The notes under the pieces: generated by a model
What the model saw: the letters and a program-made list of their open reading frames with translations, nothing else
Database searches by the model: none
Told to the model about the DNA's origin: nothing
NCBI GenBank assembly: GCA_036514755.1
Contig: DATBWN010000022.1
Span: forward strand, 1 to 39,135
Length of the DNA stretch: 39,135 nucleotides
Source of the DNA: Dehalococcoidia bacterium
Lineage (GTDB): Bacteria > Chloroflexota > Dehalococcoidia > DSTF01 > WHTK01
Direction of reading: 5' to 3'
Program-made: the position numbers and the translations under genes
Shown: positions 2,799 to 34,658 of the stretch, one piece after another
Layout of the letters: each line of letters begins with the position of its first letter
Numbering within the stretch: position 1 is the stretch's first letter

Positions 2799-4133
2799 TT
2801 ACCTACCTTTACAGGTGGTAGGCGGCGAGGTTTGACTCGAACCGCTAGCTTTGACTTCGTCCGGCCGACGGTCAAGAAGTTCCTTCTTCTTTGCCTCGTG
2901 CTCCTTCTGCTTCGCCGCGTCCAAGCAGTAGTAGTGCCCCAGCGCCGCGTCGATCAGGCTGACGCGCGTGGCGCGCTGCATTCGACCGGTGCCAGGCTTC
3001 TCTGGGTCGAGCGCCTCGTGATAGAAGGCGAGGAACTCGCGCTCGTTTGCGTTCTGACCGCCTGCAAGACCCGTACGCCACTGGTTGATGTGCTCCAGCT
3101 CGTGGCCAACCTGCAGCACGCGCCGGGCAAAGTGCCTCTCGGTTGTCCCATTCAAGAAGTAGTTTCCAACGCTAATCTTCCCCCTGCTCTTTGCCTTATC
3201 TCTATCGGCCGACATCGCTTCCACGGTGTCCAGCCCGGTCCCTGCCTTCGCATCGTCAAAGACAACGGCATCGACCTTCGCCCTCTCGCCCGGGTAGTAG
3301 GCGTCAATGATCGCGTTGACCACCTCCACCGCTCGTACCTCGGCATCCTTCGTCGTGTCCTGGGCTTTGGCGATAATTGCTTTCGCCGTCGCGTCGAGCA
3401 CGTTTGCATCTGCAGGCTTCTTTGCGCCGGTAGGCGCTTGTCCCGCATCAGGTTCTTTCTGGCCTGCATCAGGTGCCGTGCCAGCATCTGGATCAGGCTT
3501 CCTCTGCCTAAACACAGTGCCATCATGCGACGCGCTGTCCTGTTGGGCCACGTGCGCCAGCTCATGCGCCAGGAGGCGCTCGCCCGCGCTCGTCCCCGGC
3601 GCGTACTGTCCCGCGTCGAAGACGATGTCCCGACCCACGGTGTAGGCAAGCGCGTTCACCGAACGGGCCGACTCCGCGGCGAGCTCATCGGCGTGGACGC
3701 GCACGTCGCCGAAGTCGCGGCCGAAGCGTGACTCCATGAGTGAACGCGTCTCCGCGTCGAGCGTCTCGCCGGGCGAGCGCAGCACCTCGCCGACGACGGG
3801 CGGCGCGTCATGACACGGACACGACTCCGACGGCACGGAGCCGCAGCGCTGCAGGCCCGGCACCGCTGGGGCGCCCACATCGCCGGCGAGCCGCCCGCCG
3901 GCGATGACGGCATCGGCGACGGTGTCGGCCTCGCGCTCCAGCGCGTCTCCGGGCTCGCTGACCGCGAGCTTCGCCATGAGCGACGCGCCGGTGCAGCGGG
4001 GACAGCCGCCGCCGCAGGCGCAGGCGCCGTCCGGCCCACGGTCACCGGTCGGGCTGCGTGACAGCCGGGGGAGGCTTGAGGGCGCGCGGCCGGCGCCGCC
4101 GGTAACCCTTTCCGCCCTGAGAGCAGCGATCAT
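2799..4133 (-). CDS. eCIS cargo/toxin candidate E1: shared Cys-knuckle leader, full DUF4157 HExxH module, and a second C-terminal HExxH module
   Basis: The leader is ...GACACGGGCPRCTGASLMAKLAVSEPGDALEREADTVADAVIAG...LQRC. The DUF4157-type core is ETRSLMESRFGRDFGDVRVHADELAAESARSVNALAYTVGRDIVFDAGQYAPGTSAGERLLAHELAHVAQQ, with HELAH at nt 3552-3566. A second motif, VLQVGHELEHINQW (nt 3090-3104), sits in a Lys-rich, lower-GC C-terminal module. Confidence 0.85.
   Translation of the reverse strand: MIAALRAERVTGGAGRAPSSLPRLSRSPTGDRGPDGACACGGGCPRCTGASLMAKLAVSEPGDALEREADTVADAVIAGGRLAGDVGAPAVPGLQRCGSVPSESCPCHDAPPVVGEVLRSPGETLDAETRSLMESRFGRDFGDVRVHADELAAESARSVNALAYTVGRDIVFDAGQYAPGTSAGERLLAHELAHVAQQDSASHDGTVFRQRKPDPDAGTAPDAGQKEPDAGQAPTGAKKPADANVLDATAKAIIAKAQDTTKDAEVRAVEVVNAIIDAYYPGERAKVDAVVFDDAKAGTGLDTVEAMSADRDKAKSRGKISVGNYFLNGTTERHFARRVLQVGHELEHINQWRTGLAGGQNANEREFLAFYHEALDPEKPGTGRMQRATRVSLIDAALGHYYCLDAAKQKEHEAKKKELLDRRPDEVKASGSSQTSPPTTCKGR
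3610..3860. repeat. Copy A of a 251-bp near-identical dispersed repeat (partner at 7647-7897)
   Basis: Aligned by hand at an offset of 4037 nt: 4 mismatches in 251 nt. It encodes the core of the DUF4157 module of E1. Flanking sequence is homologous but much more diverged. Confidence 0.9.
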
Positions 4134-4206
4134 GGCGCCCCCAGCTTACACCGCATTGGACGTGCCCGTAATTCCAGACTCCCGGCCTTCAACGTGGCTC
4201 TCCAGG

Positions 4207-5139
4207 CTAGAACCGGAGCTCCAGCTGCGGTACGCCGGTCCCGAAAAAGCCTCCTTCGCGCTCGGTTGCCAGGGGCCACTGGCGCGGCGGCAAGCCGGCG
4301 GCCGTCTCCTCGAAGACCACCTGGCCGCCGATCAGGGGCCGCGAGGCGCGCACCTCGCTGATCAGCTTTTGCATGATCGGGTCGCTCTGAAGCCACGGAT
4401 ACGTGAAGTAGTTGTCTATGATGACCGCCTGCTGCTCGGCGTCGTAGTCGTGGATGCTCTTCCCGGCCTCCAGCGTGTAATTGCCTGCCAGGTGTCTGCT
4501 GCCTGCCAGCATGCCCGCGACCTGGTGAAATGCCGAGTCCGAGATGTAGCCGGAGCCCTTGGTCTGGTACTGCCATACATGGGCAAGCTCGTGGATCAGG
4601 ACGCGCCGGGGCATCGTGTAACCGGGCGGCACACGGATCGTGTCACCGAGGGTCGTCGGCGCGCTGAGCAGGGGCGAATACACCATCCTGACGCGGCTCA
4701 GGTCTATGCTGCTTTCGAACACGGCCAGGGCGTCCGCGGCCTCGGTCGAGCTAAGGGGGCTGCTGCCGATAGCGAAAGCTCCCTGTCCGCGGACCAAGCC
4801 GACCTCGAGAGACGGGGAGCGAAGGCTTGGTCCCGACGTCTGGCGCTGAACAAGAGTCCTGCTGCTGGCACGGACACTGCCCGCTGCGCCGCGCGGGCTC
4901 ATCTCGGCGTCCGCCGCGCGGTCCGCCTCTTGCCCCAGCGGGTCTTCGGGCTGGCTCATCTCCAGCTTCGGCATGAGCGACGCGCCGGCGCAGCGCGGGC
5001 AGCCGCCGCCGCAGGCGCAAGCACCGTCTCCAACGTGCTCCGCGGGGCCCCAAGGCACCGCCTGGCGCTGGAGCGTCGGCGGCGCTGCATGGTTGGCTGA
5101 CAGCCGCTCAGGGATGTGCGCGACTAATCTCGACAACAC
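4207..5139 (-). CDS. eCIS cargo/toxin candidate E2: shared leader plus a divergent HExxH zincin-like domain
   Basis: GTG start at 5139, 1 nt after the stop of the upstream ORF. The leader is TLQRQAVPWGPAEHVGDGACACGGGCPRCAGASLMPKLEMSQPEDPLGQEADRAADAEM...LVQRQ. The C-terminal part contains GDTIRVPPGYTMPRRVLIHELAHVWQYQTKG. The protein ends in ...LELRF. Confidence 0.8.
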   Translation of the reverse strand: MLSRLVAHIPERLSANHAAPPTLQRQAVPWGPAEHVGDGACACGGGCPRCAGASLMPKLEMSQPEDPLGQEADRAADAEMSPRGAAGSVRASSRTLVQRQTSGPSLRSPSLEVGLVRGQGAFAIGSSPLSSTEAADALAVFESSIDLSRVRMVYSPLLSAPTTLGDTIRVPPGYTMPRRVLIHELAHVWQYQTKGSGYISDSAFHQVAGMLAGSRHLAGNYTLEAGKSIHDYDAEQQAVIIDNYFTYPWLQSDPIMQKLISEVRASRPLIGGQVVFEETAAGLPPRQWPLATEREGGFFGTGVPQLELRF

Positions 5140-5140
5140 T

Positions 5141-33702: not shown

Positions 33703-33789
33703 GCGTGCCTCGGTTCGGAAGGGACGACACCGCACCCGCTGATATAGCAGGCATCCCTGAGGGCAGCCTTGGCTGCTCATGGATGAGCC

Positions 33790-33808
33790 GTGATTTTCGA
33801 GTGATCTT
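33790..33808. promoter_or_regulatory. Direct repeat GTGATTTT / GTGATCTT with 11-bp phasing in an AT-richer patch; candidate SARP operator
   Basis: The repeats are at 33790-33797 and 33801-33808 (minus strand: AGATCAC TCGA AAATCAC). They lie 14 nt downstream of the regulator stop codon and upstream of the small ORF and sheath operon. SARP-family activators typically bind direct heptamer repeats spaced one helical turn apart. A TGCTATATC element (extended -10-like) lies on the minus strand at 33749-33741. Confidence 0.25.
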
Positions 33809-33821
33809 TGGCTGAGGTCGC

Positions 33822-34658
33822 TCAGATGCTCGCCGGGTTGACGCGGATTTGCTCGTAGAGGGCAAGCGTCGCGGGCTCCGGCGCCGCGTCAAACTCGGAG
33901 CGGAGAATCTGCTGACAGAGACGGAACTGGCGCAGGGCCTGGGCGCGTTCACCGAGTTGGACGTGACAGCGCATCACCAGCCGGTGCGCGTCCTCCCGAC
34001 ACGGGTCGTGCTCCAGGAGCTGGAGCGCCAGGCGAAGGCAGGACTCGTGGTCTAGCTGGCTGTGGTAATAGGAGGCGGCGCGGGCGAGCAGCGTCAGGTA
34101 GCGGGCGCGCAGGCGCTCGCGCTCGATGAGGGCCTGCTGGTCGTCGCCGACTCGAAGGTCGCCGCCGTACAGGTTAATCGCCTGGAGATAGGAGGAGATG
34201 GCGGCGTCTGGCTCCTGGCGAGCCTGCCGGTCGCCTCTAGCGGCGAGCTCATCGAACCAGGCGATGTCGACGCCCACGCCGGCCTCCGCGTTGAGCGAGT
34301 ATGAGCCATAGAGGCAAAGCACTGGGGGAGCGCCCTCGAGCGCGTCGGCCAGCTGCTTGCGGAGGCTATGGACGAGACTGTTAAGCGCCTGGCCTGAAAG
34401 GAGGGGGTCGGCGTTGGGCCAGACTTCGCCCAAGACGACCTCGCGCGGCACGCGCCGGCGGTACCGTAGGCCGAGGCTGGAGAGAAGCGCCTCCGTCCGG
34501 CCGCCGCTGCGCAGGGCAACCGGCGAGCCGTTCTTGAAGATCGAGAAGGTGCCGAGCAGGCACACGAGGACCGGCCAAGGGGCCGCGCCGGAATGCGCTC
34601 CGGCCTTCAGAGCGTCCCAGGTGAGGTGGCTGCTGTCTTCACTCGGCGTATTGGCCAA
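33822..34658 (-). CDS. SARP/AfsR-DnrI-type transcriptional regulator (OmpR-like winged helix plus BTAD domain)
   Basis: TTG 34658 lies 7 nt after GAGGA. The winged-helix pattern is LLGTFSIFKNGSPVALRSGGRTEALLSSLGLRYRRRVPREVVLGEVWPNADPLLSGQALNSLVHSLRKQL. The BTAD pattern is DIAWFDELAARGD...AISSYLQAINLYGGDL...ERERLRARYLTLLARAA...LLEHDPCREDAHRLVMRCHVQLGERAQALRQFRLCQQILRSEFDAAPEPATLALYEQI. Confidence 0.85.
   Translation of the reverse strand: MANTPSEDSSHLTWDALKAGAHSGAAPWPVLVCLLGTFSIFKNGSPVALRSGGRTEALLSSLGLRYRRRVPREVVLGEVWPNADPLLSGQALNSLVHSLRKQLADALEGAPPVLCLYGSYSLNAEAGVGVDIAWFDELAARGDRQARQEPDAAISSYLQAINLYGGDLRVGDDQQALIERERLRARYLTLLARAASYYHSQLDHESCLRLALQLLEHDPCREDAHRLVMRCHVQLGERAQALRQFRLCQQILRSEFDAAPEPATLALYEQIRVNPASI

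Follow-up and report, generated by a model that had tools for sequence, protein, structure and literature searches.

Known contractile injection systems and their markers

Contractile injection systems (CISs) operate from different locations. A cytoplasmic CIS has been described in Streptomyces (8BKY; PMC10066040), and a membrane-anchored CIS in haloarchaea (9EZM; PMC11566945). The CISs observed in other Chloroflexota are intracellular (PMC12998442). In lineage II, the subtypes IIa and IIc are marked by a split spike, two Afp11 paralogs and a PAAR protein (Chen et al., 2019, PMC6899500). Regulators with a BTAD domain have been reported adjoining eCIS operons (PMC8213781). The domain DUF6519 is an eCIS baseplate-attachment domain, eBAP5, which frequently comes with pectin-lyase helices at the C-terminal end (PMC12923769). 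The cargo of AlgoCIS is built as NTD, DUF4157, CTD, and its loading requires the AAA+ protein Alg15 (preprint 10.64898/2026.05.27.728243). In Halogeometricum, DUF4157 proteins are secreted CIS-dependently (PMC11566945).

Gene array and flanks

The cluster studied here has a chromosomal location in an uncultured Dehalococcoidia bacterium. The window, i.e. the whole stretch of DNA analysed, comprises 39,135 nucleotides. A first-pass annotation had described a complete, co-directional contractile-tail array at 2799-34658, and the ORF map bears this out: each of the 26 ORFs is encoded on the minus strand, the regulator ORF starting at 34658 and the final cargo ORF stopping at 2799. Neighbouring ORFs are mostly separated by gaps of at most 25 nt or overlap by 1-4 nt. 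The array is a CIS. All genes of the array given below with coordinates are encoded on the minus strand.

Family profile searches within the window revealed neither capsid, portal, terminase, integrase or endolysin families nor T6SS membrane-complex or anchor families, as the annotation had stated. Profile searches over the window and 7.6 kb further left detected no phage head genes; capsid, terminase and T6SS anchor genes, recognisable lysis or release genes and a holin/endolysin cassette were likewise absent from this range. The right flank terminates within an Rhs gene, where every assembly stops. A tRNA-Lys and a decayed tyrosine integrase are located 4.0-5.4 kb past the window's left end and span, together with methylase fragments, 2.8-5.4 kb. 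An ABC-transporter operon separates the integrase remnant from the cluster, and a search for an att repeat yielded none. Transmembrane prediction across the cluster found a helix in no protein, and a six-TM anchor-type ORF is present neither inside nor beside the cluster. There is a single membrane ORF nearby; its 80-aa product is uncharacterised and has two hydrophobic stretches.

Matches were judged against the curated family cut-offs of the profile models, and weaker parts were tested via ortholog profiles. The core-module assignments of the first-pass annotation held to different degrees. Sheath, tube, cap, AAA, gpV, gp25 and the first J protein scored above cut-off, as did the BTAD domain of the regulator, and the second J protein just below. 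The hub and the PAAR-like tip were recovered by ortholog profiles, while the LysM/tube-initiator and gpI-like assignments stayed weak.

The array has its own regulator. The adjoining SARP/AfsR-type gene (33822..34658, 278 aa) carries a C-terminal BTAD domain (Pfam BTAD 9.9e-22, residues 130-272); by eye, its N-terminus looks like an OmpR-type winged helix. Between regulator and sheath, a 71-aa ORF (33487..33702) is called in all same-species contigs. Profile searches gave zero family matches for it, and tblastn a relative in only one of 80 related loci.

Tail trunk

The sheath (Cis2/Afp2-4 equivalent; 31011..33419, 802 aa) matches Phage_sheath_1 (6.4e-11) and Phage_sheath_1C (1.8e-9). Its ATG is at 33419, with GGAAGGAG upstream. 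In the PDB it matches 8bky (2.9e-71), 9ezm (1.5e-70), 8bl4 (1.2e-68) and Pvc2 (2e-43). Each match falls in two stretches. The window sheath has a large insertion in comparison to the solved sheaths. The inner tube protein (Cis1/Afp1; 30465..30989, 174 aa) is assigned by Phage_T4_gp19 (1.1e-35) and TIGR02241 (1.6e-34).

A Pro/Ala-rich protein (28713..29603, 296 aa) had no family match in profile searches. Related loci carry a counterpart gene at this position, encoding 136-386 aa with a low-complexity centre and the conserved termini MSxYFxRLAxRSGL (N) and IGxIxVxVExP…RLxRHYLR (C), both present in the 296-aa protein. By its position, it is a tentative candidate for the tape measure or length ruler. 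The tail terminator or cap (Cis16/Afp16; 27510..28709, 399 aa) contains Pvc16_N (DUF4255) at residues 12-182 (1.8e-22) and an extra IPT/TIG-like C-terminal region (TIG 3.3e-4, residues 208-270). Near-full-length relatives occur in 18 related loci. Thus, the sheath, tube and DUF4255 profiles were all recovered.

The AAA+ ATPase (Cis15/Afp15; 25369..27513) has one AAA module (Pfam AAA 3.6e-26, residues 486-611) with the Walker motifs GPSGTGKT (A) and FFDEAD (B) in its translation. Since the module is single, the protein is not ClpV-like. An N-terminal region of about 470 aa precedes the module; gene callers pick a later start (686 aa). The following 103-aa ORF (25092..25403) has no family match and no tblastn relative among related loci, where its position corresponds to a gap of 270-435 nt.

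Hub and spike

The ORF after the tube (29603..30439, 278 aa) encodes a T4 gp26-like baseplate-hub assembly protein, as indicated by PF12322 in six of 47 homologs and by predicted-structure matches. Its AlphaFold model (pLDDT 94.5, pTM 0.90) matched 29 predicted phage structures named 'baseplate hub assembly protein, T4-like' (E<=1e-3) and no structure in the PDB. Phrog_150 'baseplate hub' was matched with 0.0033. Four invariant Cys residues probably form a zinc ribbon. The protein is conserved in the corresponding place in 56 of 80 related loci. On the evidence of the PF12322 homologs and the structure matches, a P2 gpE-like chaperone was rejected for this ORF. The P2-like gene order proposed earlier is a loose resemblance.

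A conserved 226-aa protein (24415..25095) is found in 36 of 80 loci with 30-61% identity. In the PDB, its profile matches 9rce_H alone (E = 0.11, residues 105-145), which is a Cis7-like 'peptidoglycan-binding protein'. It may represent the tube-initiator part of a split Cis7. The LysM part may be the 90-aa LysM-like protein (P2 gpX-like; 24132..24404), whose ortholog profile matches the C-terminal LysM of the Cis7 chains 7b5h_AK (0.0017), 7aeb_M (0.058), 9rce_H (0.06) and 9gtp_P (0.72), and also the Kbp LysM domain (0.0021). Phage_tail_X was matched by three of 20 orthologs (best 0.011).

The gp27/gpD-like hub (23008..24132, 374 aa) matches Phage_GPD below cut-off (1.1e-3). In the PDB, its ortholog profile aligns with N-terminal halves of VgrG and Cis8 chains: residues ~80-345 of VgrG 9rce_F (1.2e-5, the best match), 9gtr_q (0.0032), the Cis8 chains 9qgm_8A and 7aef_q, and Afp8 6rbk_C. 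It is read as the N-terminal half of a split Cis8/VgrG. The C-terminal half is the gp5/gpV-like spike OB-fold protein (22475..23008, 177 aa; Phage_base_V 8.2e-21), which has weak VgrG model matches, too. The PAAR-like spike tip (Cis10; 22140..22472, 110 aa) is sub-threshold as a single sequence (DUF4280 0.027). Across orthologs, DUF4280 was matched by 12 of 12 (best 1.9e-5) and PAAR_motif by three of 12 (2e-5), and the alignment contains invariant Cys/His columns.

Baseplate wedge and tail fibre

The gp25-like wedge or sheath initiator (Cis9; 21760..22143, 127 aa) matches GPW_gp25 (2.7e-14). Two baseplate J/gp6-like proteins follow. The first copy (Cis11a; 19238..21763, 841 aa) matches Baseplate_J (7.1e-9) and exceeds the TIGR02243 cut-off of 155.8 bits (1.9e-53, 182 bits). 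The second, divergent copy (Cis11b; 16404..19241, 945 aa) falls slightly below it (1.3e-43, 149.5 bits), matches phrog_219 'baseplate wedge subunit' (2.5e-11) and is 26% identical to Cis11a across 384 aa (E = 7e-10).

The gpI/Mu gp48-like baseplate protein (14113..16404, 763 aa; ATG 16404, AGGAGGAG upstream) has three sub-cut-off matches, TIGR02242 (9.6e-4), Phage_Mu_Gp48 (0.016) and Tail_P2_I (0.14). These weak matches converge on one family at the N-terminus; this protein is probably a fibre adaptor. Directly after it lies the gene of a 1245-aa tail-fibre or tailspike candidate with an N-terminal DUF6519 (eBAP5) and a right-handed beta-helix (10366..14103; Beta_helix 3.4e-8), the placement that the fibre catalogue gives for eBAP5 (PMC12923769). 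Over its first 440 aa, it shares 50-58% identity (E as low as 1e-142) with PF20129/DUF6519 proteins whose C-termini vary. This part was modelled confidently (pLDDT 88); its PDB fold matches are weak, the best being a phage phi812 baseplate chain (8e-5, TM only 0.15). The candidate function as tail fibre is drawn from the bioinformatic catalogue. A 288-aa ORF after the fibre (9503..10369) has a coiled-coil-like N-terminus and a Pro-rich C-terminus, is called in all same-species contigs and is without a family match in profile searches.

Cargo candidates

Alignment revealed a common N-terminal leader, CxCGGGCPRC…PGDxxExEAD, in five 3' genes (E1-E5). This leader and the DUF6519/beta-helix fibre candidate are additions to the first-pass annotation. 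Among protein clusters, 1,761 contain the leader, nearly always near the N-terminus of proteins that vary widely in length. Paralog differences in its 11-codon Cys motif are all synonymous.

E1 (8596..9555, 319 aa) lacks DUF4157 and carries a C-terminal HExxH (HELGH; weak Peptidase_M78 match, 0.088). E2 (6311..8203, 630 aa) combines the leader with DUF4157 (eCIS_core 4.9e-33) and a second HExxH, around which weak SprT-like and Peptidase_M91 matches were obtained; its C-terminal region is Gly-rich and ends in RF. In E3 (5141..6187, 348 aa), the leader precedes a C-terminal domain, and profile searches gave no family match. E4 (4207..5139, 310 aa) has a divergent DUF4157-like HExxH module (eCIS_core 0.012). 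E5 (2799..4133, 444 aa) carries DUF4157 (2.2e-33) and a C-terminal domain with a second HExxH, and shares 300 nt with E2 at 91% identity. DUF4157 is thus clear in two of the five leader proteins, E2 and E5, in agreement with the downstream toxin-like genes annotated earlier. The C-terminal halves are dissimilar and, for the most part, resemble metallopeptidases. A 111-aa ORF between E1 and E2 (8252..8587), called in all same-species contigs, has a weak SnoaL_3 match (0.1) as sole match; an immunity or accessory protein is a speculative reading.

Classification and mode of action

Because the spike is split, Afp11 is duplicated (two TIGR02243 paralogs) and a PAAR-like protein is present, the cluster is assigned to dbeCIS lineage II and, within it, to subtype IIa or IIc, the subtype being read from gene content rather than phylogeny. 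The Afp/PVC/MAC type (lineage I) of the first-pass annotation was rejected on the same features, namely the gp27-like plus gp5-like spike, the two Afp11 paralogs and PAAR, while DUF4255, AAA+ ATPase and toxin-like genes stand as eCIS features. Relatives from Bacteroidota, Chloroflexota, Nitrospirota, Gemmatimonadota and Proteobacteria have kept the gene order, which runs sheath, tube, gp26-like, variable gene, cap, AAA, Cis7 N-part, LysM, D, V, PAAR, gp25, J.

That the locus is the remnant of a defective prophage, or else an R-type tailocin (a cargo-free phage tail killing by membrane depolarisation), is highly improbable. Every structural part has a phage-tail homolog, and tRNA-Lys, integrase and methylase remnants lie nearby. 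However, three of its features, DUF4255 cap, dedicated AAA+ ATPase and DUF4157 genes, serve as very high-specificity eCIS markers (PMC8213781). Capsid, portal, terminase and a holin/endolysin cassette are absent, the ABC-transporter operon intervenes, no att repeat was found, and hundreds of unrelated genomes share this gene order. The earlier exclusion of prophage, pyocin and canonical T6SS holds.

Streptomyces coelicolor and Roseiflexus have cytoplasmic CISs, free in the producer cytoplasm, whose firing under stress kills the producer without attack on others. The best PDB sheath match (8bky) is of this kind, the window has no recognisable lysis cassette, and, within Chloroflexota, all CISs that have been imaged to date are intracellular and, following lysis, always contracted (PMC12998442). 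Such a role is nevertheless unlikely here. Those systems belong to subtype IId, with a contiguous afp8 and one afp11, whereas afp8 is split and afp11 duplicated in the window cluster. Streptomyces clusters are devoid of a fibre gene and carry genes for single-transmembrane-segment effectors and for the membrane protein CisA; the window cluster has a DUF6519 fibre candidate, soluble DUF4157 cargo and zero transmembrane proteins. A cell-anchored, contact-dependent T6SS-like CIS as in Halogeometricum borinquense, docking its baseplate on the cytoplasmic membrane and firing cargo outward through an S-layer-type envelope, appears slightly less probable still. Some Dehalococcoidia have an S-layer envelope instead of a standard wall, which counts for this mode. 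The match to 9ezm nearly equals that to 8bky, the haloarchaeal names Cis8a and Cis11a suggest similarly split or duplicated genes, and the haloarchaeal cluster also secretes DUF4157 proteins. On the other hand, the haloarchaeal mode correlates with a conserved six-TM protein beside the cluster, an ORF missing here, and a long beta-helix fibre candidate fits a free particle better.

An extracellular mode is most likely, given the fibre candidate, the lack of a transmembrane anchor and cargo that is not membrane-bound; no gene reads the mode out directly. The extracellular part of the earlier annotation is favoured by gene content, but the nearest solved sheaths, cytoplasmic (Streptomyces 8BKY/8BL4) and membrane-anchored (Halogeometricum 9EZM), count against it. 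Overall, a complete lineage II CIS of IIa/IIc gene content, acting extracellularly with leader-sharing cargo, is the probable reading. While the analysis shows gene content, family assignments, synteny and a lack of head and anchor genes, the course of assembly, cargo loading, release and targeting given next is inferred. The SARP/BTAD regulator would switch on the long operon. Hub, spike and PAAR-like tip would assemble with the help of the split Cis7 (tube initiator and LysM) and the gp26-like factor, and six wedges of gp25, two Afp11 paralogs and the gpI-like adaptor would surround them. Tube and sheath would polymerise along the Pro/Ala-rich ruler, stopping when the DUF4255 cap seals the end. 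The ATPase may thread up to five leader-sharing cargo proteins into the tube lumen, and DUF6519/beta-helix fibres would be attached to the gpI-like adaptor. Lysis of the producer would release the particle. Binding of the fibres to a surface glycan on another cell may then lead to contraction and cargo injection.

More than 588 species genomes contain the sheath lineage, and the machine is therefore of an already known type. The Dehalococcoidia cluster is a typical new representative of a machine that is on record from many bacteria.

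Organization and occurrence of the gene cluster

All plausible genes between window positions 2799 and 34658 are encoded on the minus strand. They form the gene cluster of a contractile injection system (CIS), and its limits as proposed by the first-pass annotation coincide exactly with the stop of the last cargo ORF and the start of the regulator ORF. The G+C content of the window is 62-71%. Neighboring genes are mostly separated by no more than 25 nt or overlap by 1-4 nt, a spacing that fits one or a few long transcripts. Promoter and terminator scans gave counts in the relevant regions not above those of shuffled sequence, and a tRNA scan of the window found none. 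For the sheath gene (start at 33419) and the gpI-like gene (start at 16404), the first in-frame ATG with an upstream Shine-Dalgarno-like motif was chosen.

The sheath is 100% identical to GenBank HEY4684560.1 from a Dehalococcoidia bacterium. The locus was recovered at 99.5% identity or more in assemblies from over 20 metagenome samples, on contigs of at most 48 kb. The annotation of the cluster genes in the source record is generic throughout. Relatives of the 802-aa sheath occur in more than 588 species-representative genomes of many phyla. In the scan of the genome collection, the sheath alone gave no confirmed relative, and the search succeeded with an alignment as query. Cultured carriers of this sheath lineage include Plasticicumulans acidivorans, Roseateles noduli, Chitinophaga filiformis, Pseudomonas fluorescens and Leptolyngbya. 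Related loci keep the gene order from the sheath through J1, the first of two Baseplate J-type proteins.

Core components of the contractile tail

Profile searches place the sheath, tube, DUF4255 cap, AAA+ ATPase, spike, gp25, Baseplate_J and BTAD regulator proteins above curated thresholds, as anticipated from the first look at the sequence. Phage_sheath_1, Phage_sheath_1C, Phage_T4_gp19 and TIGR02241 were all matched in this way by sheath and tube. The cap matches Pvc16_N (former DUF4255) at 1.8e-22. The ATPase has one AAA module (AAA, 3.6e-26), in which both Walker motifs, A and B, are present. The spike matches Phage_base_V (8.2e-21) and the gp25 protein GPW_gp25 (2.7e-14), while Baseplate_J is matched at 7.1e-9. 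J1 exceeds the cut-off of TIGR02243 (1.9e-53); the second J-type protein, J2, scores 149.5 bits (1.3e-43), just below the cut-off of 155.8 bits. J1 and J2 share 26% identity over an alignment of 384 aa, which marks them as distant paralogs. Single-sequence PDB searches with J1 and with the cap found no match. The gpI-like protein has three family matches, concordant with each other, weak and below threshold; this earlier assignment remains a weak one.

In the PDB, CIS sheaths rank before phage sheaths as relatives of the sheath (31011-33419, minus strand). They align to its N- and C-terminal parts only, thus a middle insertion of about 270 aa is without solved counterpart. No solved structure was found for the lineage of approximately 800-aa sheaths. 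The cap protein (27510-28709, minus strand) is extended at its C-terminus by about 200 residues, in which an IPT/TIG-like signal is seen (E = 3e-4), and the extension is kept across the lineage. The distal end of the particle would be decorated by this IPT/TIG-like region.

Spike, candidate tube initiator and smaller parts

Single-sequence Pfam scans of the LysM-like, 226-aa, 103-aa, 296-aa and 71-aa ORFs and of u288, the 288-aa ORF after the fiber gene, gave nothing useful. For four parts below threshold, ortholog alignments were built from 80 related loci fetched from species-representative genomes. The ortholog profile of the 374-aa protein, earlier proposed as a gpD-like hub, matches residues 80-345 of VgrG/Cis8 chains in five CIS/T6SS structures (best 1.2e-5). 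The match covers the N-terminal halves of these chains and identifies the 374-aa protein as the gp27-like half of a split spike. The PAAR-like tip is equally borne out: all 12 orthologs match DUF4280 and 3 of the 12 match PAAR_motif.

Cis7 chains from the Anabaena, Algoriphagus and Streptomyces structures and from one more CIS structure are matched at their LysM ends by the profile of the 90-aa protein (best 0.0017). The 226-aa protein, encoded upstream of the LysM ORF, matches the preceding part of a single Cis7-like chain (E = 0.11). Of the LysM/tube initiator proposed before, the LysM part has these profile matches and the initiator part a single weak one. It is plausible from these profiles that the 226-aa and 90-aa proteins form a split Cis7.

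The ORF after the tube does not encode a P2 gpE-like chaperone. Its 278-aa product is instead T4 gp26-like: PF12322 was found in 6 of 47 homologs, and 29 predicted structures named 'baseplate hub assembly protein, T4-like (gp26)' match its predicted model (pLDDT 94.5). The identification comes from predicted viral structures; neither the profile nor the confident model had a match in the PDB. Four invariant cysteines suggest a zinc ribbon. The Pro/Ala-rich ORF of 296 aa has no family match. Related loci always have a gene at this position; its product is 136-386 aa long, conserved at both ends and of low complexity in between. From its position, the protein would look like a length ruler and is a candidate for this function.

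Tail fiber candidate

A 1245-aa protein is encoded after the gpI-like gene. Over the first 440 residues it shares 50-58% identity with DUF6519 proteins (E down to 1e-142), a group with widely varying C-termini, and its own C-terminal part contains a right-handed beta-helix (Beta_helix, 3.4e-8). A fold search of the N-terminal domain against the PDB gave a weak match (best TM-score 0.15). DUF6519 is listed as the eCIS baseplate-attachment domain eBAP5 in a 2026 catalogue, whose functional assignment of eBAP5 is predictive; there, eBAP5 is described as pairing with Tail_P2_I adaptors and as often followed by pectin-lyase helices (PMC12923769). The 1245-aa protein is a tail-fiber candidate following the baseplate genes.

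Class and subtype of the system

The cluster encodes a CIS, and prophage, pyocin and T6SS are soundly excluded. The gene content and the absence of head and anchor families agree with the first-pass annotation in this point. No capsid, portal, terminase or lysis cassette was found in the window or in the 7.6 kb to its left. Searches with Pfam on every cluster ORF and with NCBIfam on the structural genes and u288 retrieved no T6SS family (TssJ/L/M, TssA, TssK/F/G, two-module ClpV). Phage P2 has a run of genes (X, D, V, W, J, I) that mirrors LysM, hub, spike, (PAAR), gp25, J, J and I of the cluster, and phage T4 provides the likeness for the gp26-like ORF after the tube. However, the gpE/E' chaperone pair with its frameshift, the H/G fiber genes and the head and lysis genes of these phages are missing, and the phage terminators are replaced by the DUF4255 cap.

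The label 'Afp/PVC type' (a lineage I type), given before from the sequence alone, is incorrect in detail. The spike is split, a single sheath of 802 aa is present, cap and ATPase genes lie between the tube and baseplate genes, and the fiber candidate is a DUF6519 protein. Lineage I is marked by a contiguous Afp8, Afp12, an adenovirus-like Afp13 fiber, Afp14, several short sheath paralogs, and cap and ATPase at the 3' end; this set was not found. Afp of Serratia and PVC of Photorhabdus share the superfamily and the core functions, i.e. sheath, tube, cap, AAA+, gp25, J, spike, PAAR, fibers and 3' toxins, but their toxins are without DUF4157.

[quoted passage not shown] Two afp11 copies occur in IIa and IIc, afp10 is missing only in IIb, and lineage II is without afp14 (Chen et al., 2019; PMC6899500). 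At the locus, afp8 is split, afp11 is present twice, afp10 is present, and afp6 and afp14 are absent, applying the same criteria. Assigned from gene content, the locus fits dbeCIS lineage II, subtype IIa or IIc. With these subtypes it shares the split afp8, two afp11 genes, the PAAR gene afp10, the lack of a recognizable afp14 or afp6, additional conserved genes without known domain, and the core of tube, sheath, LysM, gp25, AAA+ and cap. A BTAD regulator, the core domains and DUF4157 toxins at the 3' end represent a general eCIS pattern described in 2021 (PMC8213781). The literature on dbeCIS and CIS examined contained no description of Dehalococcoidia as host class or of this exact cargo set.

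Cargo candidates and their shared leader

Five cargo-candidate genes are located on the minus strand at the 3' end of the cluster: E1 (8596-9555), E2 (6311-8203), E3 (5141-6187), E4 (4207-5139) and E5 (2799-4133). Their early reading as toxin-like genes is upheld by eCIS_core (DUF4157) matches, two strong (about 1e-33) and one divergent (0.012); the other two have none. All five share a leader of about 70 aa, reading LQRQ…, a four-cysteine knuckle CxCGGGCPRC with the invariant form ACACGGGCPRC, and then PGDxxExEAD. All differences between the paralogs inside the cysteine block are synonymous, hence the block is translated, even if the starts set by Prodigal and PGAP for three of the genes lie downstream of it. 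The possibility that the motif is untranslated is ruled out by these synonymous-only differences, and also by the open frame in all five genes and the internal position of the motif in other proteins. The Met starts preferred by Prodigal and PGAP for E2, E4 and E5 are at 8014, 4972 and 3977, just after the motif. These starts shorten the proteins from 630, 310 and 444 aa to 567, 255 and 392 aa, and the conserved leader is lost. Public annotations of leader-bearing cargo genes may routinely miss the leader.

A profile of the leader matched 1,761 protein clusters, nearly always at residues 20-100 of proteins 97-2000 aa long. The cysteine motif is kept in 144 of the 197 leader-bearing sequences retrieved; in the other 80 loci, the 10 kb around the sheath do not contain it. 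Judged by this distribution, the leader is an N-terminal module found widely among polymorphic proteins of the DUF4157 type, not confined to this locus, and the cysteine motif is neither universal in the sheath lineage nor specific to the present cluster.

Over the DUF4157 region, a stretch of 300 nt is 91% identical between E5 (3537-3836) and E2 (7574-7873), whereas the 3' halves of the two genes are not related. Such a pattern is expected where polymorphic toxins undergo cassette-like exchange. The repeat is also a breakpoint in several assemblies. In E2, roughly the last 170 aa are rich in Gly and have a beta-strand-like appearance. E2, E3 and E4 end in hydrophobic-Arg-Phe-COOH, namely GVRF (6311-6316), GIRF (5141-5146) and ELRF (4207-4212), encoded by differing codons. 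A C-terminal RF was present in 4 of the 197 retrieved leader-bearing proteins.

The cargo of AlgoCIS from Algoriphagus machipongonensis (PMC8894135) likewise consists of leader, DUF4157 and a variable C-terminal domain, with one leader per system. Loading requires the leader and the AAA+ protein Alg15, though Alg15 is absent from the particle, and the tape measure sets length and cargo capacity (preprint 10.64898/2026.05.27.728243). The single-module AAA+ protein (Alg15/Cis15), a tape measure and fibers are further common features. AlgoCIS differs in belonging to lineage I, in its contiguous spike and gene order, and in an Alg19-like fiber versus DUF6519; its sheath aligns over the C-terminal domain only (3e-41). 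In Halogeometricum, secretion of DUF4157 proteins requires an intact sheath (PMC11566945). By analogy, the logic of cargo, ATPase and tape measure in these two systems would fit the locus part for part. The leader might be a cross-phylum cargo-loading tag read by the Cis15 ATPase. This reading is tentative and rather improbable; what makes it possible is that all five cargo genes retain the leader, among them two without DUF4157, that 1,761 protein clusters contain it, and that its place in these polymorphic proteins is almost always N-terminal.

Flanking regions

A substrate-binding gene of ABC transporter family 5 (1-1872, minus strand) extends past the left border of the window. The protein has a twin-arginine/lipobox-like N-terminus, SRRRAIAASGGLALGTAILSAC, and the gene is an ordinary chromosomal neighbor. 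It belongs to an ABC-transporter operon (SBP_bac_5 and two permeases) that follows, left of the last cargo gene, after an 80-aa ORF on the opposite strand (2345-2587, plus strand). Gene calls on every same-species contig include the 80-aa ORF, and a promoter-like site lies beside it (TTGACG-17-TATAGT, 2295-2323). Its predicted layout, with a pair of hydrophobic segments and a C-terminal tail that is charged, resembles that of a small holin; a family match was not obtained.

A same-species contig reaching beyond the left end (L092) carries a tRNA-Lys(TTT), a tyrosine integrase and two N6/N4 DNA methylase fragments at its positions 2263-4904, i.e. 2.8-5.4 kb beyond window position 1. The patch with the methylase fragments has a lowered G+C content of 0.57-0.60. 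The C-terminal half of the integrase looks decayed, and housekeeping genes lie further out. The stretch from tRNA to methylase fragments is the remnant of an integrated element, set apart from the CIS cluster by the ABC-transporter operon. No att repeat was found for this outside tRNA: the search gave only a 14-nt match, inverted and at E = 0.024, with the central part of the tRNA-Lys, and it was rejected as island boundary.

Divergent from the regulator, the region 34943-39135 (plus strand) encodes an Rhs/YD-repeat protein whose length is 1397 aa or more. It has a Sec-type signal peptide, DUF6531 and 20 RHS repeats, and runs off the window end. It was rejected as a part of the CIS because of the divergent transcription and the Sec-type signal peptide. 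The earlier statement that no head genes adjoin the cluster holds for the 7.6 kb to the left; the right flank ends inside the Rhs gene in every metagenome assembly of the locus.

Mode of action

An extracellular mode of action is favored for the locus from its gene content, with modest confidence, since a fiber candidate is present, the cargo is soluble, and none of the cluster proteins contains a transmembrane helix. The label 'extracellular' of the first-pass annotation thus agrees with the genes, while the mode is an interpretation and the closest solved sheaths are from cytoplasmic and membrane-docked systems. The nearest is that of CISSc from Streptomyces coelicolor (8BKY, 2.9e-71), listed together with 8BL4 at E ~1e-70 (PMC10066040). 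A cytoplasmic CIS acting within the producer cell, as in Streptomyces, is the alternative that arises from this kinship, and Chloroflexota CISs imaged in situ are intracellular (PMC12998442). CISSc shares the SARP-type regulatory context and the lack of a typical Afp14. However, it belongs to subtype IId, with one afp8, one afp11, a sheath of 534 aa instead of 802 aa and no fiber gene, and its effectors carry a transmembrane segment and need the membrane protein CisA. None of these traits fits the locus, where the IId (Streptomyces-type) set is replaced by a split afp8, a duplicated afp11, a fiber candidate and cluster proteins free of transmembrane segments.

The T6SS-like CIS of the archaeon Halogeometricum borinquense has the second-closest solved sheath (9EZM, 1.5e-70), uses Cis8a/Cis11a-type part names and secretes DUF4157 proteins (PMC11566945). 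In this system, docking correlates with a neighboring gene for a protein with six transmembrane helices. No multi-pass membrane ORF was found in or beside the cluster, which argues for the extracellular mode over docking. In annotations of such clusters, 'eCIS' is to be read as a statement on gene content, not on the mode of action.

Implications

The locus is a clean, complete and compact lineage-II CIS of about 32 kb and 26 genes from Dehalococcoidia, a class without a cultured CIS producer. It leaves the existing knowledge of CISs unchanged. It is usable as an annotation template for the gp26-like assembly factor, the putatively split Cis7 and the split Cis8, the candidate ruler of variable length and the predicted eBAP5 fiber. 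A loading function of the leader, if true, would contradict the view that eCIS loading signals are disordered, system-specific and without sequence conservation, and would offer a portable tag for cargo engineering. Five cargos with one leader represent a natural set for the study of cargo selection by the AAA+ ATPase.
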